IMG/VR virus record: IMGVR_UViG_3300034068_000566 | Span: 1 to 64,000 of that record | Source: a virus | Direction: 5' to 3' (one strand) | Length of the DNA: 64,000 bases | In this document: piece by piece, positions 5,077 through 45,479 of the stretch | Position numbering within the stretch: position 1 is the first letter of the stretch | Layout of the letters: each line of letters starts with the position of its first letter | Program-made: the position numbers and the translations under genes | The notes under the pieces: model-generated | Seen by the model: only the letters and a program-made list of their open reading frames with translations | Database searches by the model: none | Told to the model about the DNA's origin: nothing

Positions 5077-7058
5077 TATTGTCCACCTTCTTCGTCATAA
5101 CATCCGCAACATTCAACGCAGATCTGTTCATCATCCTTGTAGCAGTTAGGGCACATGTACTCTGACATATTCATCTCAGGGTCCTTGCACCATTCACATA
5201 TGGCAACGCATAGTTCATCAAAAGTGTATTCAGATAAACGCTTATCTAGTCTGTTAGTCTGTATCGTCATCATCGCTTGGGTCTGAGATGTATCCACGGT
5301 TGGCCATCCACTCTAATACATCTTCTTGGTGTTGTTCGGCACCGTATTCTAATGAGAAGCCTGCTCCATTGCTAACGGCGTCACATAAGTATAGCCACAT
5401 GTCATCCTTACTTACTGTGGCCTTCCATTCAGGGTCATCTAAAATATTATTAATAGTGCTCCATGTCCACAGCCACACTAGTGATAGGCCAAGGTCGGTT
5501 GAGTCTAGAATATCTAGACATTGGTTTAGTTTATCTTTATCATCGGGTTTCATATTACTATTTTACTCCTCTTCCTCATCCTCGTCAAGTTCATCCTCAT
5601 AACGTTGGATAACTTCAACTTGAACATCTGTACCCTCTATCCAAGGCCTCTCAGTAATAAAATATCCAATACGATTAACAAAACTATAGCCAGCCCAGAT
5701 ATAGGTGCCTCCATCATCACCATCACCATAAGTCCAAACAATGTAATCATCTGCCTCCTGTATGAATTTGAGTTCGTCGCCATATGTTTCAAACATATAG
5801 CCATACTCTCCATCGCTAAATGAAGCATTAGTGTCTATATGATTAGGGATTGGTTTGTAGGTATCAAACCATTTGTCATAGTCCATTTCAATAAAATTAT
5901 TCATGTGGGGTCCTTTCAAGGTTAGTACGGTCTATACTTAAATTATACGTCAAGCAGTAGGCATTTGTCAAGGCCTCCATATATCCCTGCAAAAATCTGT
6001 CATCGTTATCTTCCATAGCTTCTTGACAGTCCAGCATTTCTACCTTAAGCCAGCCATGCATTAAATCAATTAGCGGTATAGAGACATCCTCTAAGGCTTT
6101 CGTTAAATGGTCGGGGATAAAAGGATACTTATCACTCATTTATAATCCCCAATAGGTGATCACAGGTATCAATTGCTCCCATGTAAAATGAATCTGATTC
6201 AAAGTACTCATCATCGGGAATCTCAATACCCTCTTGTGCGTCTGCCATATCTTGTTCTAAAGAAATCCTGTGAATATTTATATACTCTCTTAATGTATTT
6301 AGGTCCATATATTAATTATAGGGGTTTGAGTTGATTTTTACAAGCGGTGTGGGTGTGATACTGGTCACATCACTATGGGATGAGGCAAAGATTGTGCCTG
6401 GAAGTTTATGTGTACTTAATTTAACAATGGCCTGGTGAGGGCACGGACAAATCGGGGTAGCAATATATTCATCTTTCCAATAAGTAGTAAACTCCATAAG
6501 AGTATCACACTCAGTACAAAGAAACTCATGCTTAGTCCAGTGGTTTGAAAACATTAGTCATCCTCATCTTCATCTAAGAAATCATTATAGGAACCAAAGG
6601 TAGGCGTAGCCCAGTCAGGAGCATCAATACCCCAATTATCGGGGGAGTAAACAACATCTCTTGTACCGTCAGGATTCATTAGTCAAAGTATCCTTCTGCC
6701 CATAGGCCTTGTAAGAATTCGTGAGCGGTAACTAAATAATTATGAATAGCAGGATTCTCATCAGCATTAATTAACAGATCAGCAGAGCCAACCCCATAAA
6801 TCATATTATCTAAATCTTCTTTAGTATAGCCCATCATAGGTAAAAGTCATCTCCTTCTTTATATCCATAGTATTCGTTATATGATTGTTTTAGTGTATCA
6901 GGAGCGTATGACATAAATTGCCATTCAGCATACTCACTACCCTCATCTAAATTTCTATCATTCCATTGCTCAAAGAGTTCTTGCTCAATATCTACCTGAA
7001 TTGCTCCAAGGATGTGTTCGCCTACTGTATCTGTAAATGGTTCTATTGTTTGGGTCAT
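5076..7058 (-). other. Run of short, mostly acidic early ORFs (5076, 5254, 5563, 5897, 6312, 6834 and smaller ones)
   Basis: Tightly packed or overlapping minus-strand ORFs with no recognisable domains. Confidence 0.55.
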
Positions 7059-7176
7059 GTATTAATTATCGCACAAACCCTGCAAAATGTCAACTCCTTA
7101 CGTAATCCAATTCCTGGAAAAATATCATTGCTTACGTAATCATTGATTTTAAAAAATGTCAAATTCGAAAATCTTG

Positions 7177-7250
7177 CGATCTGTATCGGACTTGAACCGA
7201 CGACCTCTACCGTGACAGGGTAGCGCTCTAACCAACTGAGCTAACAGACC
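7177..7250 (-). tRNA. tRNA-Asp (GTC), CCA not encoded
   Basis: GGTCTGT TAGCTCAGTTGGTTAGAGC G CTACC CTGTCAC GGTAG AGGTC GTCGG TTCAAGT CCGAT ACAGATC G cloverleaf. Confidence 0.95.
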
Positions 7251-7256
7251 TAATGG

Positions 7257-7286
7257 TGAGCAGTTTGAAATCTTGCTCAGGATTTT
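7257..7286 (-). ncRNA. Compact H-type pseudoknot element, copy 1 of 5
   Basis: AAAUC CU GAGCA A GAUUU CAAAC UGCUC. Confidence 0.65.
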
Positions 7287-7290
7287 TTTG

Positions 7291-8307
7291 TTAGGCTAAC
7301 GCCATAACATTTTGAACAACTTTTAACAAGCGATTCTTTTCTGCGTTAATAGCAGGATCAAATCCACTTGCGCTTGCGAGAATAGATTCGTTAGAACCAC
7401 CACGAGCAGAACGATACCAGTCAAGGCGTTCGGTTAGCGCATTGAACGCACCCCAAGCAGAACCAGCAATCATTCCGTTAAACTCACCTGTGTAAATATC
7501 ATTGACCACGTCAATTTTATTTTCCCACTTTTTAAGTGAACCCTTAGAATCTTTTTCAGGCTTAGGGTAAGCAGCAAGAATGATGTTATTGAAATCAACA
7601 GCATTGACTTCTTTTTCAATCATAGCCTTAGCCATAATGTCAAATTCGTCCATATACTTATTAGCCATGCCAAGAGTTTCACGAGCAATTTGTACCTTGC
7701 CGTTAGCAGTTTGAGTATGGCGAATCTTGAAAGATTGCTTGATACCATTCTTTTTCTTGATTGAACCAAGAGCAAGATTGAGAGTGTTAGCGCATACAAC
7801 ACGAACAGGTGTGATACTTGCTTGAATAGCGATTGAGCCGTCATGTGATGTGTTGATGAGCAAATAAGTTTTAACCTTATCGGCAACACCAGTAGGGTCA
7901 AGAATTGTTTCACGTTCTAGTGCTAACGCACCGAATACAACACGACCACCCTTAATTGAGCCAGCAGTTTCCCAACGACCACCGCCGTCTAGGATATTGT
8001 CACCGAATGAGAATAGATCCTCATTCTGTAAAACATGGTAGCGTTCACCAACTACACCAAGAATATCTGTCTGAGTGTTATCGGTGGGATTAGTACGCAA
8101 GACATATTGGTACGCCTTGTCGCTTGTTAGATGTGTAGGGGTTTCTAAATCCTCTAAGCGAACATTCCACCCGTCAAGATTTGCTAATGAAAGCATTTCT
8201 GATGTGGTTTTTTCCTCTGAGAATACAGTACCCAATCCATGCCAAGCAGGTTCACGGAATGAAGCAAAACTTGCTACCCCATTTTGTGATTCTAGTTCAT
8301 GTGCCAT
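7291..8307 (-). CDS. DUF932-family phage/plasmid protein (TIGR03299-like)
   Basis: MAHELE...AWHGLG...Y..LQN...ETAG...GG.VF...SHDG...TPVRVVCANTL...RHT. Confidence 0.85.
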   Translation of the reverse strand: MAHELESQNGVASFASFREPAWHGLGTVFSEEKTTSEMLSLANLDGWNVRLEDLETPTHLTSDKAYQYVLRTNPTDNTQTDILGVVGERYHVLQNEDLFSFGDNILDGGGRWETAGSIKGGRVVFGALALERETILDPTGVADKVKTYLLINTSHDGSIAIQASITPVRVVCANTLNLALGSIKKKNGIKQSFKIRHTQTANGKVQIARETLGMANKYMDEFDIMAKAMIEKEVNAVDFNNIILAAYPKPEKDSKGSLKKWENKIDVVNDIYTGEFNGMIAGSAWGAFNALTERLDWYRSARGGSNESILASASGFDPAINAEKNRLLKVVQNVMALA

Positions 8308-8468
8308 GAGTTTATTTCCTTTCGTTTGATTGTTAATTTAAGTATAACATTACGGACTGACAAAAGCAAATCGGGATAGTTAAACATGGACAATCTGGAC
8401 ATTTTTTCCGTGATCTTAATCACATGATCGTAACTTGACTTTTAAGCTGGCCCGTTCGAAAATTTTGT

Positions 8469-8498
8469 GAAGCAGTTTTAGGACGTGCTCAGGTCCTT
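8469..8498 (-). ncRNA. Pseudoknot element, copy 2
   Basis: AGGAC CU GAGCA C GUCCU AAAAC UGCUU. Confidence 0.6.
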
Positions 8499-8515
8499 TG
8501 ATTAGTAGCCCCCTA

Positions 8516-8920
8516 CTAAACTTCTATTCGGTCAACACTTGATGAAAGATATTCAACACCTTCAGGATAATTAACAGAATCAAAATCAATATCGTGAATT
8601 AAATTTAGTGCTGACTCTTCATCACGAGCACGACATGTCACTGAATATTGAACTGTAACTTCTAATTCAAATTCTTTTGACAATTCAAATCCGCAAATGT
8701 TAGCGATCTGCTCCGCTTCTGCTTCATTGATTGAAGCCTCTTCCAAAGCATTCATAGTCCAGTCAAACATGTCATCACGCAAGCGCTGTAGGGTGCCTGC
8801 TGTTTCATAGTCACGCTGCGCTAAATTCTGGGAATGTAGAACTAAATCATTAATTCGTTCATCCTGCTTAGCAATAGTGGCCTTAAGAAAATCCTCTGTG
8901 GCATTTGTAGTTGTAATCAT
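8516..8920 (-). CDS. Hypothetical phage protein
   Basis: Coupled ORF with a coiled-coil-like N-terminus. Confidence 0.6.
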   Translation of the reverse strand: MITTTNATEDFLKATIAKQDERINDLVLHSQNLAQRDYETAGTLQRLRDDMFDWTMNALEEASINEAEAEQIANICGFELSKEFELEVTVQYSVTCRARDEESALNLIHDIDFDSVNYPEGVEYLSSSVDRIEV

Positions 8921-9186
8921 TAGTTATCCAATCCTTCTGTTAGTTGATTCATTTCTTTCATTGTAGCAACCATGTCTGACATATCTGATTCTGATAAGCA
9001 AATAGACGAGACAAGTGTTGCTGTTAGTGCTGATAGTGAGGCACTGTATTTAAATAGCAACCGAGCAAACTCTTCATTTTCCATGTATTCACGGTTTTTA
9101 AACATAAATTGCGCTAAACCCATTAGTTCATGATCAAAGAGGGCTTCCTCTGTTGCTTCTTTAATTTGTAACATTGTGCTAATCAT
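8920..9186 (-). CDS. Hypothetical phage protein
   Basis: ORF with AAAGG SD. Confidence 0.6.
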   Translation of the reverse strand: MISTMLQIKEATEEALFDHELMGLAQFMFKNREYMENEEFARLLFKYSASLSALTATLVSSICLSESDMSDMVATMKEMNQLTEGLDN

Positions 9187-9212
9187 TGGGCTACCTTTCT
9201 AAAGTTTTGTGT

Positions 9213-9241
9213 TGAGCAGTTTATAGTCATGCTCAGGACAT
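9213..9241 (-). ncRNA. Pseudoknot element, copy 3
   Basis: GUC CU GAGCA U GAC UAUAAAC UGCUC. Confidence 0.6.
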
Positions 9242-9254
9242 TTCCGTTAAGGAA

Positions 9255-9677
9255 TTATAGGTATTCTGATACAGCGTTGTAAGTGCTGGTATTGACAGTT
9301 TCCTCATCTGTCATTTTAAGAATACGAATTGCGTTTTCCAATTCCTTCTTTGACTCACGATAAGTGCTGGCATGAATAAACTCTACTTCACGCTCAGGCT
9401 CAGGTGGCATTTGTGCTTCTGATACTTTGAGGTCAAAGTCAATGTTTAGAGTGTCGTTATACGCACGATAGTTAGTGCGTAAGTTAAAGGCTTGCTTGAT
9501 GTTATCAAGTGCGAAAGTAAGAACTTCTGCTTTCCATGCTTCCATAGCCTTCTCAAACTTTAGTTCATTTTCTTTTTGTGTTGCGTAGTTAGTTTCTAAC
9601 TTAGCAAGTGATACCTCTAGTGCGTTGATGATTTTAGGTGTTGCGATTTTGACATTTATTGCTTTTGCTCTAGCCAT
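9255..9677 (-). CDS. Hypothetical phage protein
   Basis: 140-aa ORF with its own promoter at 9711-9732. Confidence 0.65.
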   Translation of the reverse strand: MARAKAINVKIATPKIINALEVSLAKLETNYATQKENELKFEKAMEAWKAEVLTFALDNIKQAFNLRTNYRAYNDTLNIDFDLKVSEAQMPPEPEREVEFIHASTYRESKKELENAIRILKMTDEETVNTSTYNAVSEYL

Positions 9678-9735
9678 GTGTTTTCTCGTTTCTGTTTGTG
9701 GGGTATTTCTATTATAGGGGGTGGGTGTGACATTT

Positions 9736-9764
9736 TGAGCAGTTTGTATTCATGCTCAGGAATA
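9736..9764 (-). ncRNA. Pseudoknot element, copy 4
   Basis: UAUUC CU GAGCA U GAAUA CAAAC UGCUC. Confidence 0.65.
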
Positions 9765-9774
9765 AGTAATTAGA

Positions 9775-9939
9775 TTACTTTGCTGTCCAAGTTGTGTAGC
9801 GGTGTGCGCCATTGACATCTAGTTTGACTCGGACATTACCATTTGATAGTGGAGTAATCTCTGCGATTGTTCCAGTTACCTTTGATTTTTGTGTGGTGTA
9901 GGTGTCGCCTACCTTGTAAGTTGCTGTATTAACTGACAT
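9775..9939 (-). CDS. Small SH3-like beta-barrel protein
   Basis: MSVNTATYKVGDTYTTQKSKVTGTIAEITPLSNGNVRVKLDVNGAHRYTTWTAK; has SD and promoter. Confidence 0.6.
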   Translation of the reverse strand: MSVNTATYKVGDTYTTQKSKVTGTIAEITPLSNGNVRVKLDVNGAHRYTTWTAK

Positions 9940-10190
9940 TGTATTTCCTTTTCTGTTAGTTGGTTATAGATTAAGTATAACATTTCCTACTGACATTTAT
10001 CAAATTATTATCTGATAATCTCACTATGTGGAATTGTTATTTGGTTATACCTAAGTATGACAGAAAATGTCATAAATGTCAATTCTTAATCGTAAACCTG
10101 GGTGTGATAAATGTCACCTTAATCTGCTATGTGATAAATCTCACACGTGTCGAAAATTTCTGCGGGGAAGCACAGAAATTAACTTATTAC

Positions 10191-11809
10191 TTATTCATCA
10201 CTATCAACATACACATAGAGAGAGATCATCTCATCATGCTTGAAAGTGATAACATCTTTCTCACCAAACTCATCAGTGAACTCAACATGATAGTCATCGC
10301 CGTTATTGCTATCGCTAATACCTGTTACTTCAACAACCTCATCTGAGATACCGATTAGATCATTTAGCATTAGCTGGTTTGGTTGTAAGCGATCAGCAAA
10401 GATTAATTCCATAGTTTTTATTGTAGCAGACATTTTATCCATCCATTTCTACGCAGTCCATAAAGCATTCCTCGCACATATACTCATCAATAGTGTAGTC
10501 ATCTTCATTAAGGCAATCGTGTTCAACGCAAGGGCATTTATTTATTGTCATCATGCGAACATCTCATCTAATTCTGAGTCTGACATTTCTACCCACTCGT
10601 TACTATTTATTAGAAATTCGGGCTCGCCAATAATAGACTCGCAATCAGAAAAATCGGGGAATTGGTAATTGGTCATTACTTCCTCGATATCAGTCGTTTC
10701 AAGATAAAACTCATGATACATGCTTACCTTATAAGTCTTAGACATTATTCGTTATCCTCATCTACTGGGTCAATAAACCATGATAGGTTATGTCCTTCAA
10801 TAATAGCATAGGCTGGTGACTTTGCTTGCCCTCGCCAAGTAACCTGAAAGTTACCAATCATAGGCATATCAATAAGGCGATCATAGTCCTCATCATAGGC
10901 GGCATCAATAGCGGCAATACAAGTAGGTATCATTTCAACGGGTACTGGTGGATAATGATTACCCTGTAAGTGATAACGCAATTGCGTTTCAAGGTCTAAG
11001 GTTGTGTCTGCTAATCCAATTGCTGTTACTGATCCCATTATATTTTCTCCTCAATGTCTGCGACATAAACATCACTTCTGCGAATTCCGCCATATTCTAA
11101 ATTAGAATCAAACATGCTGACGGCATCTTCTTCATTGTCTGCTTCAACGTTAATAAAACAAGTAAACTCATATAGTGCCATTATTTATACCTCTACGCCT
11201 TCGTTGTTGTAAATAGTTAATTCTTTTATGTCTGCGACATAAACATTATCTTTATCTATTCCATATTTTAATTGAAATTGAAAAACATCAATAGCCTCAT
11301 CATGGTTTTCTGCTTCTACATCTATGAAAGTGTTAAACTCAAATCTTGCCATTACTTAGTTACCACCTTTCTACCTTCACGATAGAATACTTTTGTGTAG
11401 CAAACCAATTCGGGAGTGTAAATATTGACAGTTGAGTATTCGTTAGCCGTTCCCCAATCGGTAAACTGAAAAAATGCTTGCCACGCTTTCATTTCATCAG
11501 GGTAATCTTTCTGCCAGTGTGGGGCATTGCTATCATAGGCGACAGTTATTTTATACATTAGTTTCCTTCTTTCGTTGTTGATATTTCTGATACTACCATG
11601 TCGTACTGACAATCGCAGGGTTCTGTGTAATCAAATGAGCAGAAATAGCAACCCATCATTTCATCGCATACACGGCACTGATAGCGGAATTGTACTTCAT
11701 CGCAGCAAATCTGAGATATATCCCAAATTAAATAGTGATCTGTCTTATCTATAACTGTAGCCATAGGGGGCAACCTTCTTTCTTTTTCTTTATACTGTAA
11801 GCCTACCAT
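10191..11809 (-). other. Run of short early ORFs, including tandem paralogs 11038..11181 and 11185..11352
   Basis: MALYEFTCFINVEADNEEDA...VYVADI versus MARFEFNTFIDVEAENHDEA...VYVADI. Confidence 0.55.
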
Positions 11810-12066
11810 TTATCACTGACATTTTCAATTTTTAATAGGCTTATCTTAAATAGTAAGACGGCGTGTCGTGTGATTAATCTCACAACCTGGGTAAGTTATC
11901 CACAGTTCTTAAATCACCCTGTGGACAACCTTTCGAAAAAAATAAAGGACAGCCTGCAGTAGCTGCCCTTTAAATTATTTTTTATTATCCAGATCCAGCA
12001 ATCATTAAGATAGCAATAAAAATACCAGTTGCAATTATTAAGATTTCCATTTTTATTATTCTCCTT

Positions 12067-12801
12067 TTATTTTTTAGTGGCAGAAAAAATTATGTCACTC
12101 TTTGAGTATACACACAATGAGCATGAAACGCAAGCCGAGCCAGCAGTGCTAATCAATGGAATTTGCTTATTATTTTCAGGACATTTAGCAGCAGGGCGCC
12201 CGATCATTTCTTTAACATCTGCTTGACCTATAGCAAAATTCTTAGCAAGGTATGCCATGCGTACGCCACTATTAATTTTTAGATCAACAGCAGTTTTAAC
12301 ATTCTCACTATCAGCAGAAAAATACAGTGAGAGGTTTTCAATATCTTTTAGAATAAGGGCAGCAGACTTAACACGAGTGTAAACCCAGAATTGTACATCC
12401 GCATTAAGTTTAATTACATCGGACCACGCAATGGCATAAGTATCATTAAAGAAGTCACCGTCCCAATGGATACGGAATAACATGGGCGCATTCTTTTTTA
12501 CACAATCAGCCTTAAAATCAGCAATCATCTCACTGATCAAATTAAGCATGGTTAAATAGTCTGCGTCTTTTAGCAGGGCCCAATTATGAAGTAGGTTAAC
12601 CTTTACGGAAGGGAAGACCTTTTCAAGTTTTCCTGCGTAGCATATGCTCTCACATACACTAGTGGCACCAGGGCACGAGAAAGCCTTTCCAGCAGGTAGG
12701 CCGAACGTGTTAGCAATTGCTGCTTGTTTTCCATTTTTTGTGACAAGGTTAGCCACCTTTCTATCGTTAGAACGTTTTAATTTTAGGGGATTAGTAGTCA
12801 A
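12067..12801 (-). CDS. Gp88-family (radical-SAM-like Cys cluster) protein
   Basis: CPGATSVCESICYA, FRIHWDGDF, FWVYTR, NLSLYFSAD and C-terminal C..C..C. Confidence 0.75.
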   Translation of the reverse strand: MTTNPLKLKRSNDRKVANLVTKNGKQAAIANTFGLPAGKAFSCPGATSVCESICYAGKLEKVFPSVKVNLLHNWALLKDADYLTMLNLISEMIADFKADCVKKNAPMLFRIHWDGDFFNDTYAIAWSDVIKLNADVQFWVYTRVKSAALILKDIENLSLYFSADSENVKTAVDLKINSGVRMAYLAKNFAIGQADVKEMIGRPAAKCPENNKQIPLISTAGSACVSCSLCVYSKSDIIFSATKK

Positions 12802-13262
12802 GGCTAAGACTCATTTCTAATACACGATCTTCATGGGTAATAGAATCTGCTAATTCATTTAGCCAGCAATGATCACACATAGGCATATATTCATCAACAG
12901 CATTTTCATTACACTTAGGGCAGGTAGTAGAATAGAATTCATCAAAGAATTCATCGTTTTCAAATGTCATGGGGGCACGACCTTTCTTAGTTGTTGTTAT
13001 TTTTTAATTCTAGCATATCGGACTGACATTTATTCTTGCGAGAATAAACTTTCTTAGACTTAATAGGGGTCGCCGCATTTGACCTACGCAATTCCATAAG
13101 CCTGCGTAAATCCTCAGCGGTTTTCTTAGTTGACATACAATAATCTTAGCATACTTAAAGTTAAAATACAAATTATAAAATTGTGACAAATCTCACAAAA
13201 CCTGGGCCTGTGGACAAAGTACGTAAAGCTGTGGATAACTTTTCGTTTCGAAAAATTTTTAG

Positions 13263-13292
13263 TGAGCAGTTTAAAATCTTGCTCAGGATTTT
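13263..13292 (-). ncRNA. Pseudoknot element, copy 5
   Basis: AAAAUC CU GAGCA A GAUUUU AAAC UGCUC. Confidence 0.65.
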
Positions 13293-13446
13293 TATTTTTA
13301 TTTTTTAATTCGTTCACTTCGCAAAGCAACTTGCAATCTGCGAATTTCTTTTTCTAATTGGATGTTGCGTTGCCAAAAAGCAATCATCATTGTAAGTGAT
13401 CCAGCTAAAGCAATTACAATTGCGATTAGTGTTCCGTTATCTAAAA

Positions 13447-15975
13447 TCAATTTGCCATCTCCAATTCTTTATAGCAAGCAATCGCAAATCTATTTGCGTC
13501 AAATCTTGGGTTATCAGTTTCAAACATTAGAGAAAATTCATCTACCAAATCAGCAAATAAAATTTCTCCTTGCTCATCAAAAACAGATGTAGCAAAATAA
13601 TTGCTAAGAATTTCAGCGGTTGCGACATAGTCTTTACGAGTCATCATTATTCGGCCACCTTTAGAATTGCGTAAGTGCCATTTGCGTTTATATTTTCAAG
13701 GACTGGCTTGATAGCAGGCGCAAGTAAATCTTTTAGCATTGATTCTAAAAGCATTATCTGACTTACTTCATCAAGTGCTAAAAATTGTTGAGCCACTGGA
13801 TGAGTTTCATCAAATTCGGTTACAAACTTTAGAGCGTGTTCTATTGATATTGTCATTTTATTTCCTATTCGTTAGTTGGATTCGGGTGTATTAAATAATT
13901 GTATATCTTGGCACTGACAAGGCTCAACATGGTATTCCTCGCCTGTACCAAAAAAGATTAGGCCAGTTGAGTAGCAATCCTCGCAGGGTATTGTTAAAAC
14001 TGAGTTTATCATTAAGCACCTACCTTTATGGCAACAGTTGCCCAAAAGTTTTTGATTCCACGAGTTGAGCGAACCTCAATAGCGTATGCCTCAAACTCTG
14101 AGCCGTACCAAACATCAGGGCGGGGAGTTGCGTATTGGATAACGCCTTCATCATGGCGATTAGTTGAGCGATAAGTCTTGCCGATTAGCAAGTCCTCTAT
14201 TGTGTATGGTTTTGCTGACATTAGTTGTCACCTTTCTTTATTTCTTTAATTGTAGCGGATAGGACTGACAAAGCCTGAGCCTTGCTTGCGTTGCGTTGCG
14301 CCTGTATTAGCGCCTTATATTCCTCTAGTGTCATTTTTGACCTTTCGTTAATTGCTTACTATGTAAGTTTAGCAGATTAGACTGACATTATCAAATTAGA
14401 AATGCTAACAATTCGGACATTTTGATATTTATTTTTGTGACTATTCTCACACTGTAAATTTTTCTATAACTTTTGTATAACAATCTTAAACCTATCGGCG
14501 TGTCGGTTTGACTTTTCGAATTTTTTTTCACTCCTTAGAAAGTAAAAATAGAAAACGAAAAGCAAAAAATAAAGTTAAGAAAAATAAAGCTCTGCCGTCA
14601 GTGAAAAAAGTTAAGTCCATTTTTTATTCTCCAATTCCGTTAAGCATTTTTTCTAATTCTAAAAGTTGATCATTAGTTAAATGATCTAATTGTATTGCGT
14701 TAGCAAATCCGAATAAATCTATTTCCATTTTTACACCTCTTCATTTTCTCTAATGGCATCTTCAAAATCTAAAAGCGATTGGTGATAAGCGATTGGGTCG
14801 CACTCTCGCAAAATCTGTGAGGCAGAAAAACTTAGGTTGCCAATTTCAAAAGGCTTATACGATTCGTCTAGCATGTCATCAAACCAAGTTTTAATTTCAA
14901 AGGCTACATCAAAATCTAGCATTAGTTATTTTCCTTTTCTATTTTTTTTACATTTAGATAATCGGTTACATTTAAGTAAGTGACATAAGCAGCCCAAATA
15001 AATAAGGGAATAAGAATAAGGTTTATCATTTAGTTAGCCCCTCTAATAGTTCCGTTAATTGCTAATAAGTCACACTCTACTTTTAGAGATGTGTTTTTGT
15101 TAAGGCGTGAAGGCAGGGCAGAAATAAAATCAAGCACCTGTTGCTTAGAATAGAAAGGCATTTTTTTAGTGTTGCCGTTATATGAGGTTAGTGTAAGTGT
15201 TATCATTATTTTTTCTCCATTACTTTAATTATGACATCTAAATCTTTTTCGGTAAGCAATACGCTTGCGCTACCCCATAGGGCAGCATAAGTGTGACCAG
15301 TATCGCCATATTTTTCTTTTGCTAAATCATAGGCTAATTGTCTTTTGTCATATGTATCCATTACTTACACCCCTCGCATGTGAACTTAGTGAACTTTTTA
15401 TCTTTAGCAAATACCTCTAAGTAATTATCATTACAGTTAGAGCATGCGATAAGTGCGGTAGAGGCTCTGCCGTATAGGTGAGGCTCTGATACGGATAATA
15501 GGGCGTTATCTATAACCTCTTGTGTTTTTAGTATAGTCATTTTTGACCACCTTTCGTTTTCGTTATATAGCAATTTTAGCATTAGGGTCTGACATTTTGC
15601 CTTATTTAGACAGCGTGTCGGAAATTTCTTTTTGTGATATAGCCCACAATTCTTTACACTTATCAGGGTTGTTCCACCATGGGAAACCCTCGTGATATTG
15701 GGCGGGGGCTAATACAACCTGACCGCAAGGGCATAAGTTCATCAACCCTTTAGGGTAATCGCTTACAGTAGCGAACTTAGTCCAAATACTCATTTAGTAG
15801 ACACATACCAATCTGTCCACATAGGGAATTGCTCAGGGTCACCATCATAGTAGTAACGCTCAATATTTTGCTCACAATCTTGGCAGAAAGTGAATTGCTC
15901 ATCTCCATAGTTAGAGATAGCGGAAAGCATAGGGTTATGCTCATGTGTTTTTGTTAATGTAGTCATTTTGACCAC
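13447..15975 (-). other. Run of very short early ORFs (13447, 13647, 14012, 14731, 15361, 15602, 15790 and others)
   Basis: Packed ORFs, many with AAAGG SD behind a TGTCAG promoter. Confidence 0.55.
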
Positions 15976-16019: not shown

Positions 16020-16520
16020 ACAAATTGAGGGGTACAAATAGGATAAAACGGACATTGTGAGGTAGGTCACATGTGTTTCATGTCACATGATTAGATCGTT
16101 ATCAAATTGTTATAATTATTAGGGCGTGTCGGCTTGACAAGGATATACACATCACCCTGTGGATAACTTTTTTTCGACATTTTTTTATGTGGTGTATATC
16201 ACATATAAATATTACACAATTACGGCGTGTCGGGTTGTTTTTGTCAGTGCTACCTGCTATACTTGCCATATAACAACAACGAAAGGACATAAAAATGTCA
16301 CTTACCCTATACCCTGTGAATCAGTACTATTTAACTGATAACACTCAATTTATCCACTGTGGCGAGAGCCAATTCCGTCACTATTGCGACAAGCACTTTC
16401 AGGCTCAGGGGTGCTATTTCTGTGAGTTTGACTACGCTCAGCCTTGCGAGTGTGACGAGTAACACATCAGACACACCCCCAAAAGGGGTCAAAATGTCAG
16501 TTCCCCCTGCTATACTTCCA
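16020..16520. promoter_or_regulatory. Divergent control region with CRP-like, DnaA, GACAC and TGTCAG elements
   Basis: Strand switch; TGTGA-N6-TCACA-type sites at 16056, 16072, 16188, 16451; DnaA box at 16158; GCGTGTCG boxes at 16122 and 16223. Confidence 0.65.
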
Positions 16521-43493: not shown

Positions 43494-45479
43494 ATGTCAG
43501 ATGTTTTTTCATTTCGTTTATCAGAGGATTTTGTAACAAAATATAGTAATACTCCAGCACCGTTTGGATTTGCAGATGCGGGGGAAAACTCTTTAGGAGA
43601 AATTACTTTTATTCGTACCTATTCTCGTGTAAAAGAAGACGGAACAAAAGAACGTTGGCACGAAGTTTGTCGTCGTGTTATTGAAGGCATGTATTCAGTT
43701 CAAAAAAATCATGCTAAAGATAATCGTCTAGGCTGGAATGACAATAAAGCTCAGAAGTCTGCACAAGAAGCATTCCAAAGAATGTTTGAATTAAAGTGGA
43801 CCCCTCCAGGTCGTGGTATGTGGACATTTGGAACAGCCATGACTATGGAAAAGAAAAACTCAGCAGCGCTACAAAACTGTGCAATGGTTTCTACAAAAGA
43901 CCTTGACAAGAATGATCCAGGGGCTTTGTTTGCTTGGGTTATGGATGCCTTAATGCTTGGTATTGGTGTAGGGTTTGACACAATAGGACAAGAGAAGAAT
44001 TTTTCTATTTATGCTCCAACAGAACCAGCAGTTATCTTTGAAATTCCAGATACTCGTGAGGGCTGGGTAGAATCAGTACGTATACTATTAAACTCTTACC
44101 TAAGATCAAATCAACCTATCCAAAAGTTTAATTATGACCTTATCAGACCTCTAGGAGCACCAATTAAGGGCTTTGGAGGGGTCGCTAGCGGTCCAGCACC
44201 ACTCATTGCATTACACGATAAGATCAATCATGTCATAGGCTCTAGAGCAGGGGAAATCCTAGATTCTCGTGCTATTACAGACATCGTCAACCTTATTGGA
44301 ACATGTGTTGTTTCAGGAAATGTCCGTCGTTCTGCAACCTTAGCTTTAGGTGCTCCAGGAGATGAAGATTTTATTAATTTAAAAAACCCAGAAGTATTCC
44401 CAGAACGTAACTCCTATGATTCAGATAATCCAGGATGGGCATGGATGTCTAATAATTCTATTGCAGCAACAGTTGGAATGGATTATGAAAAATATACAGA
44501 TTTAATTGTAAACAATGGAGAGCCAGGTTTTATTTGGCTTGATGTTGCTCGTAACTATGGTCGTCTTGCAGATCCAGCGGATGGAAAAGACTATCGTGTT
44601 ATGGGCTTTAATCCTTGTGCGGAGCAGCCATTAGAATCATACGAACTTTGTACACTTGTAGAAGTGCACTTAAACCGTCATGATTCCAAGACTGTAACTC
44701 TTCTTCCAACACATTGGCAGCAAACAAACGGTATTATGCAACGCAACCGTCGTATTGGTACATCTCTTACTGGTATTGCATCATTTGCAGATCAAAATGG
44801 ATTACCAATTGTTCGTGAATGGATGGACGAAGGTTATAACAAGATACGTTATTATGATAAAAAATATTCAGAGTGGTTGTGTGTTCGTGAATCAATTCGT
44901 GTAACAACTGTTAAGCCATCTGGATCAGTTTCAATTCTTTCTGGTGCAACCCCTGGGGTTCACTGGGGACCTGGAGGAAACTTCTTCCTTCGTGCTATTC
45001 GTTTTGGAAACACAGATCCAATGCTTCATTTGTTTAAAGCAGCAGGGTATAAAATTGAAGACGATCTAGTATCAGCAAACACATCAGTAGTTTATTTCCC
45101 AGTTAAATCAGGTCATCCAAGATCTGAAAAGGATGTAACCCTGTTTGAAAAGATAAACCTTGCTGCAACAGCTCAAAAGTATTGGTCTGACAATGGAGTA
45201 TCTGTAACTCTATCCTTTGATAAGGAGACAGAGTCAAAGCATGTTCCAACAGTTTTGCATATGTACGAGGGACAACTAAAGGCAGTATCATTCCTTCCAA
45301 TGGGAAATCATACTTATCCACAACAGCCATATACTCAGATCACAGAAGAAGAATATGATTACTATGTTGGTCGTATCGGTCATATTGATTTCTCTGCTAT
45401 TTATGACGGGGTAGATAATCTTGAGGCACTTGGCGAAAGCTATTGCACTACAGACTACTGTGAGATTAAAATTAAATAG
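43494..45479 (+). CDS. nrdJ: Class II (adenosylcobalamin) ribonucleoside-triphosphate reductase
   Basis: F.RTYSR, PPGRG.W, LQNC, NPCAEQPL..ELC.L, TTVKPSG and C-terminal CTTDYC. Confidence 0.9.
   Translation: MSDVFSFRLSEDFVTKYSNTPAPFGFADAGENSLGEITFIRTYSRVKEDGTKERWHEVCRRVIEGMYSVQKNHAKDNRLGWNDNKAQKSAQEAFQRMFELKWTPPGRGMWTFGTAMTMEKKNSAALQNCAMVSTKDLDKNDPGALFAWVMDALMLGIGVGFDTIGQEKNFSIYAPTEPAVIFEIPDTREGWVESVRILLNSYLRSNQPIQKFNYDLIRPLGAPIKGFGGVASGPAPLIALHDKINHVIGSRAGEILDSRAITDIVNLIGTCVVSGNVRRSATLALGAPGDEDFINLKNPEVFPERNSYDSDNPGWAWMSNNSIAATVGMDYEKYTDLIVNNGEPGFIWLDVARNYGRLADPADGKDYRVMGFNPCAEQPLESYELCTLVEVHLNRHDSKTVTLLPTHWQQTNGIMQRNRRIGTSLTGIASFADQNGLPIVREWMDEGYNKIRYYDKKYSEWLCVRESIRVTTVKPSGSVSILSGATPGVHWGPGGNFFLRAIRFGNTDPMLHLFKAAGYKIEDDLVSANTSVVYFPVKSGHPRSEKDVTLFEKINLAATAQKYWSDNGVSVTLSFDKETESKHVPTVLHMYEGQLKAVSFLPMGNHTYPQQPYTQITEEEYDYYVGRIGHIDFSAIYDGVDNLEALGESYCTTDYCEIKIK

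Follow-up and report, generated by a model that had tools for sequence, protein, structure and literature searches.

A compact covarying RNA pseudoknot recurs behind genes of phages and mobile elements

Background

The coremin motif (xrRNA-C), GUC-CGAA-GAC-GUUAAACUAC (PMC10520033), and its Watson-Crick variant xrRNA-WCC, GUC-GGAG-GAC-GUUAAA-CUC-A (PMC10321173, PMC10520033), are carried by beny-, cucumo- and picorna-like RNA viruses (Dilweg et al.; PMC6546385, PMC10520033, PMC10321173), and RNAs of both kinds stall Xrn1 and ribosomes (PMC10520033, PMC10321173). The coremin loop lp1 follows the rule YGAD (4 nt) or YGNNAD (6 nt), and a hairpin placed after a spacer (hp2) is needed for Xrn1 resistance (PMC10520033, PMC10321173). 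xrRNA-WCC has a 3-bp Watson-Crick stem 2 and requires G as loop L1, the changes G5A and G5C abolishing function (PMC10321173). Here we describe an H-type RNA pseudoknot of about 28 nt that occurs five times in the first 64 kb (hereafter, the window) of the virus record IMGVR_UViG_3300034068_000566, a single 95,289-bp contig of a lake phage with 37% G+C, and that recurs in numerous unrelated phages and in bacterial and archaeal mobile elements, characteristically just beyond a stop codon.

Compact pseudoknots are used in other ways as well. Luteovirus-type frameshifting pseudoknots (that of beet western yellows virus and similar) measure about 28 nt; their L1 of 1-2 nt starts with C, a single junction nucleotide is unpaired, and L3 is rich in A and suited to minor-groove triples.

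Results and discussion

Five copies in the window

Five matches to the core pattern CTGAGCA-N(3-14)-AAACTGCT, with a spacer of N7 in each, were found in the window, all on the minus strand (7259-7280, 8471-8492, 9215-9236, 9738-9759, and 13265-13286), where dinucleotide shuffles give 0 expected matches. Covariance model R1 (E up to 5) returned the same five copies and no other from the window (Table 1), and looser regular-expression scans of the entire 95,289-bp genome yielded no sixth. A scan of the genome for the generic architecture (P1 of at least 4 bp - YU - X5 - N - P1' - AAAN - complement of X5) recovered four of the five and nothing extra, copy 3 being missed because its P1 has only 3 bp. 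The five minus-strand copies proposed in an initial annotation of this DNA are thus borne out by pattern scan, shuffles, and covariance model alike.

Table 1. Positions in the window of the pseudoknot copies and associated features.
Feature	Position	Strand	Remarks
Pseudoknot copy 1	7258-7285	minus	R1 49.5 bits; core pattern
Pseudoknot copy 2	8470-8497	minus	R1 40.5 bits; core pattern
Pseudoknot copy 3	9214-9239	minus	R1 46.6 bits; core pattern
Pseudoknot copy 4	9737-9764	minus	R1 42.3 bits; core pattern
Pseudoknot copy 5	13264-13292	minus	R1 51.3 bits; core pattern
tRNA-Asp (GUC), no encoded CCA	7176-7250	minus	directly downstream of copy 1
Hairpin and U-tract terminator, canonical	11943-11972	minus	followed by UUUUCGAA; same slot as copies 2 and 5
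Weaker hairpin terminator	10155-10180		same slot
Octamer UUUUCGAA	3647-3654	minus	
Octamer UUUUCGAA	7164-7171	minus	
Octamer UUUUCGAA	8455-8462	minus	follows copy 2
Octamer UUUUCGAA	11932-11939	minus	
Octamer UUUUCGAA	13247-13254	minus	follows copy 5
Palindrome GTGAGATTNATCACA	8410-8424		follows copy 2
Palindrome GTGAGATTNATCACA	10103-10117		
Palindrome GTGAGATTNATCACA	10130-10144		
Palindrome GTGAGATTNATCACA	11869-11883		
Palindrome GTGAGATTNATCACA	13182-13196		follows copy 5
Palindrome GTGAGATTNATCACA	14436-14450		

The P1 arms of copies 1 to 5 read AAAUC/GAUUU, AGGAC/GUCCU, GUC/GAC, UAUUC/GAAUA, and AAAAUC/GAUUUU, and our reading agrees with the compensating pairs listed in the initial annotation. 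In copy 1, P1 (7285-7281 with 7272-7268) is followed by an L1 of CU (7280-7279), by a stem 2 that pairs GAGCA (7278-7274) with UGCUC (7262-7258), by an L3 of CAAAC, and by the tail ACCAUUA; in copy 2, P1 pairs 8497-8493 with 8484-8480, and stem 2 joins GAGCA to UGCUU, giving a G-U pair.

P1 begins 5 nt beyond the stop codon of a DUF932 gene (7291-8307) in copy 1, and 18, 15, 10, and 5 nt beyond those of ORFs (open reading frames) 8516-8920, 9255-9677, 9775-9939, and 13298-13450 in copies 2 to 5, so that all five lie shortly after a stop codon, as had been claimed. The tRNA-Asp gene starts 7 nt after the end of UGCUC in copy 1 (7258); the distance of 6 nt given earlier holds when the conserved A that follows is counted as part of the motif. 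Copy 2 is succeeded by CACAAAA-UUUUCGAA and an operator-like site, and copy 5 by ACUAAAAA-UUUUUCGAA, DnaA-box-like sites, and an operator-like site, which places both at the ends of transcription units. Copy 3 lies 27 nt ahead of the start codon of ORF 8920-9186 and is thus operon-internal; from copy 4 to the start of ORF 9255-9677 the distance is 59 nt.

The fold and its covariation

Each copy spans 26-29 nt, and the motif reads P1 (3-6 bp) - CU - GAGCA - N - P1' - N(0-3)AAAC - UGCUC - A. P1 is free in sequence and closed by a C-G pair (112 of 113 aligned examples), L1 is C(U), stem 2 pairs (U)GAGCA with UGCUC(A), and one junction nucleotide follows the 5' strand of stem 2. At the end of L3 the AAA is invariant, and the C and the U after it each exceed 90% in alignment A1, built from 113 distinct examples. 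AAAC stands 7 nt from stem 2 in 102/122 instances; an apparent relation between P1 and L3 lengths was discarded, the negative correlation being a mere by-product of this fixed distance.

A search of IMG/VR with the core pattern only gave at least 118 loci, and 121 of the 139 matches listed keep three or more P1 pairs, nearly always at the same 1-nt offset; a stricter pattern, run over one genome per prokaryotic species, gave at least 119 loci, with a P1 of at least 3 bp in 103 of the 120 matches listed. In A1, both middle P1 pairs use all four Watson-Crick types, and 91.8% of cells are paired, as against 77% in shuffled alignments and 27-43% after displacement of the partners by 1-3 columns. 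The observed covariation was not reached in any of 500 shuffles. The three inner P1 pairs served as a selection criterion for A1, while the fourth P1 pair and the raw pattern matches are free of this selection. Stem 2 varies in the same manner: relaxed searches found AAGCA/UGCUU (L095, L089, L037, L009, and phage PaV-LD), and compensated variants are also seen as GAGUA/UACUC (L063), as GGACA/UGUCC and GGGUA/UACCC (L078), and as a 6-bp GAGCCA/UGGCUC (L008), with G-U intermediates, window copy 2 among them; a 3' variant that recurs is AAAAGGCUC. The near-invariance of the core noted at first describes the window well; divergent copies elsewhere carry compensatory double changes in stem 2.

The pseudoknot is real and under selection as an RNA fold. 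The covariation of P1, which the initial annotation had read as selection on RNA structure, is substantiated by the 113-sequence alignment and its shuffles, and the G-U pairs together with the strict co-orientation with genes argue for an RNA rather than a DNA element. A DNA-level site (for recombination, or a palindrome bound by protein) or a self-cleaving mini-ribozyme might account for the invariant core nucleotides and for the inter-phage homology junctions at the knot described below. Known ribozyme families gave no match, and a DNA site is contradicted by G-U pairs in both stems, by the fixed orientation to genes, and by arms that are compensatory and not identical; we hold either to be highly improbable.

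Nested folding yields about -6 kcal/mol, most of it from stem 2, which implies that the AU-rich P1 depends on the knot. In three loci a hairpin of 15-30 nt is inserted at the junction nucleotide or in L3 (L084:3081-3144, L074:6625-6673, L076:11046-11099), and the fold thus tolerates insertion at these two points.

The marginal stability of the helices, the highly invariant single-stranded nucleotides, and a topology and size like those of preQ1-I (short L1, one junction nucleotide, A-rich L3) would suit an aptamer for a small ligand, as in a preQ1-I-like riboswitch, or for a conserved protein of the ribosomal or RNA-chaperone kind. However, an Rfam search gave no family match, the flanking genes have no relation to one another and for the most part no known function, leaving no common pathway to regulate, and a position after the stop codon is unlike that of an expression platform, which renders the aptamer very doubtful. 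At the gathering threshold, the only match of Rfam 15, whose families include preQ1-I, the known ribozymes, and the RAGATH motifs, in the whole window is the tRNA; with E up to 10, no match in 7000-13500 touches copies 1-4, and copy 5 overlaps two chance-level matches with E above 5, snR67 (16.8 bits against a gathering value of 55) and Ysr197 (14.1 against 167). Eight carrier loci from genomes returned tRNAs only, and the open-access literature, queried by topic and with the core sequences themselves, gave no description of the phage motif. The motif, which the initial annotation could assign to no named family, is thus undescribed in Rfam and the searchable literature.

In 72% of instances UGCUC is followed by an A, which can join the L1 U as a sixth pair of stem 2, and the tail that follows is poor in G (4% in its first 5 nt). 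The idea of a Rho site was dropped, as the G-poor stretch stops after about 10 nt. These features, with an L1 U and a first stem 2 G that are invariant or compensated, raise the possibility of a tRNA-acceptor mimic, in which the coaxial stack of P1 and stem 2 with a 3' A-C-C-A tail imitates an acceptor arm, as in the tRNA-like structure of turnip yellow mosaic virus. Such a mimic would be cut by RNase P between C-U and GAGCA (leaving U at -1, a G1-C72 pair, and A73), or would be treated as a tRNA 3' end (CCA repair, protection from RNase T). An ACCA tail is present in 16/135 instances where about 0.4% would be expected (a rough estimate from base composition, with no control), and in 5/14 tRNA-adjacent copies against 11/121 others (P = 0.013). 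Yet these are just 12% of instances, and many of them are closely related to one another; the stack has 9-11 bp and not 12, an RNase P site right before a tRNA would be redundant, and the knot would not survive a cut in L1, which would leave the upstream RNA exposed. We therefore regard mimicry as quite improbable.

Distribution of carriers

The motif is carried by more than 100 viral contigs and more than 100 bacterial or archaeal genome contigs, mostly with phage or mobile-element genes. Carriers in the genome set belong to the Saccharibacteria (many), Anaerolineae, Actinomycetes, Firmicutes, Bacteroidota, alpha-, beta-, gamma-, and deltaproteobacteria, Cyanobacteria, and Methanobrevibacter. 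Where the upstream gene can be named it is of phage or mobile-element type (phage minor capsid protein, DUF2958, DUF3768, and, in the window, DUF932). The abundance in Saccharibacteria first hinted at a cellular gene, an idea we abandoned because the flanking ORFs there are of mobile-element types (DUF2958, DUF3768, phage capsid) or unknown. A spread over hosts so diverse speaks for an RNA that acts by itself or through universal machinery.

Among described phages, Planktothrix phage PaV-LD holds one true copy, confirmed with R1 (15222-15255), and unverified BLAST matches were obtained in Paracoccus phage ParKuw1 (28611-28638), Gordonia phage GMA2, Lactobacillus phage EV3 (near 32677), and gut Clostridia phages. 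Searches of T4, T5, SPO1, and Syn9 with R1 gave chance-level matches only, those in T4 being late-promoter-like TATAAATA stretches. No near-identical phage record was found for the window, and tblastn with its portal and tail-fibre proteins returned distant relatives only, the portal being about 46% identical to that of Streptomyces BE-cluster phages. Lake-water DNA runs (at least 20) and metatranscriptome runs (at least 4) contain relatives of the window at 90-99% identity.

A subfamily of five loci (L021:2456-2510, L034:1700-1757, L058:7530-7620, L062:3880-3937, and L106:1620-1710) has a conserved GC-rich structure (..GUCGGGGGAGACAGCGAC..) ahead of the knot and, downstream, AUUAAAAUUUAAGGAG followed by a gene whose product starts MFEYRV or MPNYDY, presumably resembling small zinc-ribbon regulatory proteins. 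The knot may here be part of a larger leader RNA.

Placement relative to genes and tRNAs

Placement was examined in 135 non-redundant instances, comprising the viral loci listed and the genome to which the window belongs. A knot lies inside a same-strand ORF of at least 50 aa in 7/135 cases, compared with 66% of random positions. The distance from stop codon to P1 is never below 4 nt, has its mode at 5-6 nt, and is at most 20 nt in 75/122, with a tail beyond 30 nt, while the distance from knot to the next start codon is broad (median 76 nt, with a secondary peak of 29/122 at 20-30 nt). When the two are cross-tabulated, a close stop with a far start is seen in 40 cases and the reverse in 19. 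A lower edge of 4-5 nt is that of a structure just clearing the mRNA entry of a ribosome with the stop codon in its A site, and we infer that the knot sits as near the stop codon as a terminating ribosome permits without unwinding it. A test on convergent genes was set aside as too noisy, owing to spurious opposite-strand ORFs.

A tRNA gene starts 4-13 nt downstream of the knot in 14/135 instances, and in none of the 135 does a tRNA end within 60 nt upstream of it; with RNase P cutting at the downstream tRNA, the knot would be the last structure of the upstream RNA. BLAST comparison of 6-14.5 kb of the window with related contigs gave homology blocks that end within 5 nt of the 3' edge of a knot 12 times and of its 5' edge never, against a mean of 1.9 for five random points (P about 0.001). 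One such block, the DUF932 gene plus knot (7254/7258 to about 8372), is common to L078, L089, L040, and L017 without the downstream tRNA of the window. Breaks confined to the 3' edge indicate that the knot is inherited with the upstream gene. The knot is therefore part of the transcript of the upstream gene and, judging from these alignments, moves with that gene in the exchange of phage gene cassettes. Between 6800 and 13600 of the window, joints with lake contigs were also seen to jump from one knot copy to another (9736 to 9213, 9734 to 7254, and 9243 to 9772), a hint, though only that, that natural variants may differ by whole gene-plus-knot cassettes.

The distances to downstream genes bear on a different possibility, namely that the knot is a coremin-like roadblock that stalls 5'-to-3' movers (RNase J, scanning RNase E, Rho, or a post-termination or scanning ribosome) and shields or insulates the RNA downstream of it. 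The likeness to coremin and its Watson-Crick variant, both of which stall Xrn1 and ribosomes (PMC10520033, PMC10321173), speaks for this, as do the secondary peak of starts at 20-30 nt, the 19 instances with a far stop and a close start, and a Saccharibacteria locus in which the knot stands in a 5' leader. Shielding of downstream RNA is, however, hard to reconcile with the tRNA pattern, in which 14 knots precede a tRNA and none follows one, or with copies 2 and 5, behind which promoter/operator regions follow and no RNA needs shielding. A downstream hp2 is not enriched (13/121), the loop CUGAGCAN is unlike the YGAD/YGNNAD rule, and the carriers include contigs of beta- and gammaproteobacteria, groups mostly without RNase J. 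A roadblock of this kind therefore seems rather unlikely to us, and we prefer a role at the 3' end of the upstream gene.

Architecture of the early region

The minus-strand early region of the window is divided into units, each of which ends in a structure followed by UUUUCGA(A), with an operator-like palindrome downstream. The unit-ending structure is a hairpin terminator in two cases, a knot at copies 5 and 2, and at copy 1 a knot with a tRNA behind it; copies 3 and 4 both lie within a single unit. This positional equivalence with hairpin terminators is the strongest local hint of a 3'-end element.

The octamer UUUUCGAA occurs after every unit-ending structure, be it hairpin, knot, or tRNA-Asp, and forms the terminator U-tract in three cases. 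After copies 2 and 5 and after tRNA-Asp it is preceded by A-rich sequence, and the junction is, by resemblance, a putative AU-rich cleavage site of the RNase E type. The 15-bp palindrome GTGAGATTNATCACA has 6 distinct sites with 7 matches (two being one palindrome on both strands) against 0.7 expected, with one or two sites ahead of each early transcription unit, and probably serves as a phage repressor's binding site; contig L074 has a related sequence behind a knot.

These unit ends also raise the question of a transcription element, in which the knot, folding in the RNA polymerase exit channel, brings about pausing or termination, alone or with a downstream U-run. A U-run directly follows the knot in 20/135 instances, including Methanobrevibacter copies, where a U-run alone is the archaeal terminator, and copies 2 and 5 occupy terminator slots. 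By contrast, 85% of instances have no such U-run, none of the five window copies among the exceptions; at copies 2 and 5 the U-run begins 8 nt past the knot, too distant for hairpin-type termination, and copies 3 and 4 are operon-internal with the next gene 27-59 nt off. A direct part in transcription is thus improbable. A canonical terminator lies within about 50 nt downstream in 4/135 instances, and this rarity suggests that the knot replaces terminator hairpins and does not accompany them.

A scan for sigma-70 promoters showed no enrichment (31 against 23 in shuffles), and promoter assignments rest on the operator-like repeats and on individual strong matches only. DnaA-box-like sites occur in two early units. 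The exact consensus TTATCCACA is present 8 times in the window, and 33 times with one mismatch allowed, against 23 in shuffles, none of which reached 33. Four exact boxes fall within 275 bp (2598-2872), the others at 11896-11928, 13209-13238, 16158-16166, and 45314-45322, and some of them border early promoter regions, directly behind copy 5 and behind the canonical hairpin terminator. They may mark an origin, or control or titration by DnaA. Two small minus-strand ORFs, 11038-11181 (47 aa) and 11185-11352 (55 aa), are paralogues (M-A-x-x-EF...VEA-N-E-A...) in tandem duplication.

A possible 3' cap or boundary element

We tentatively favour the view, without regarding it as established, that the knot works autonomously as a cap or boundary element at the 3' end of the upstream gene, with a mechanism that we propose as follows. 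Acting without a phage-specific partner, the knot would be a compact, mechanically robust cap that both fixes and protects the 3' terminus of the upstream message. Termination or cutting just beyond the knot would come first, through RNase P at the next tRNA, through an endonuclease that acts behind copies 2 and 5 at the AU-rich A/UUUUCGAA stretch, or, for about 15% of instances, through termination at a U-run. Exonucleases moving 3' to 5' would then trim the RNA back and halt at the knot, so that the coding part would survive and adjacent cassettes would be insulated from one another. From the list of roles offered in the initial annotation, the genomic context thus favours that of 3'-end stabiliser or boundary; ribozyme and ligand aptamer gained no support, nor was direct evidence against them obtained.

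Several points weigh against this proposal. Homology breaks at the 3' edge could stem from crossovers in the conserved AAACUGCUC, which are the sole ones that keep P1 matched. With 85% of copies lacking a U-run, the manner of 3'-end formation is something we infer. An AU-rich P1 of 3-5 bp is predicted to be marginal alone, its stability hanging on tertiary contacts, for which C+.G-C and U.A-U triples of L1 and A-minor contacts of L3 are candidates, or on a partner. The nearest described relatives of the coremin type block enzymes arriving from the 5' side and not the 3' side. The metatranscriptome data consist of assembled contigs, in which RNA starts, ends, and strand are not visible, and were not used as evidence of expression or processing. 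Finally, in 19/135 instances the knot is near a downstream start and far from any upstream ORF of at least 50 aa, as in a 5' untranslated region (5'-UTR). A Saccharibacteria leader (L145:3755-3830; also L119, L153, L178, and L231) is conserved with the knot as a 5'-UTR element, in the order promoter-like sequence, 14-codon mini-ORF (MSSDREQWAGPEHD), and stop codon inside L3 of the knot, followed by a strong ribosome-binding site, a 138-aa gene of unknown family, and a HIT-family gene.

Taken further, the proposal would cast the knot as the full stop of the prokaryotic mobilome, independent of the host and in use from Saccharibacteria to viruses of methanogens: a triplex-type pseudoknot of about 28 nt that physically resists processive RNA enzymes and so sets message boundaries, a prokaryotic counterpart, by descent or convergence, of the coremin xrRNA found in RNA viruses of eukaryotes, with AAACUGCUC as micro-homology for the shuffling of gene-plus-knot cassettes. 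We consider this larger picture unlikely. Were it true, the knot would be the first exoribonuclease-resistant RNA class described in bacteria and phages. Should the favoured view of a cap or boundary element hold, a tiny portable RNA would set message ends and stability in many phages and mobile elements independently of the host and would explain a recurring boundary of mosaic gene cassettes. The knot would then be a new class on the short list of bacterial mRNA stabilisers, and the exonuclease-resistant RNAs known from eukaryotic viruses would gain a connection to phage biology; it could serve as a 28-nt insulator or stabiliser in synthetic biology, and with its help annotation pipelines might recognise where genes truly end in phage 'dark matter'. 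Whatever its mechanism, the motif is abundant, strongly conserved, and absent from Rfam.

Comparison with known RNAs

The bacterial elements closest in position are 3' stabiliser hairpins, repetitive extragenic palindromic (REP) elements, and intrinsic terminators, which likewise lie just after genes, within operons or at their ends, and in the window the knot shares its slot with terminators. The knot differs in being a sequence-conserved pseudoknot and not a GC-rich hairpin, in usually lacking a U-tract, and, with respect to stabiliser hairpins and REP elements, in spanning phyla where these are species-specific.

The topology of the knot equals that of preQ1-I (RF00522), with which it shares H-type architecture, size, and an A-rich 3' tail forming L3. 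It gives no cmscan match to this family at E up to 10, is unlinked to queuosine genes, and lies after stop codons and not over a ribosome-binding site. Its distance from the A-site codon, 5-6 nt, is that of the spacer in luteoviral frameshifting knots, but it follows a stop codon in place of a slippery heptamer, and its spacing ranges from 4 to more than 30 nt, with a lower limit only. No frame extended past the stop codon was apparent, though no systematic search for slippery sites was made.

The closest likeness is to coremin, which is similarly small, with a C-G-closed hairpin whose loop pairs beyond an N2-3-AAAC spacer, a U following; both are located in untranslated stretches adjoining genes, where by analogy a mechanical block may be presumed. 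The GAG/CUC stem 2 of xrRNA-WCC offers a further parallel. Nevertheless, the loop of the phage knot is the 8-nt CUGAGCAN, with an invariant U and not G as its second nucleotide, and its stem 2 has 5-6 Watson-Crick pairs compared with 0-3 in coremin and 3 in xrRNA-WCC, from which it also differs in having C(U) in place of G as L1. A hairpin comparable to hp2 lies 0-4 nt downstream in 13/121 instances (other offsets give 7-21) and is absent from all five copies in the window. The phage knot is hosted by DNA phages and mobile elements of prokaryotes, and its context points to the 3' end of an upstream gene, whereas coremin shields the RNA downstream of it from Xrn1. The motif resembles coremin in form, and perhaps in principle, and is not a member of that class.

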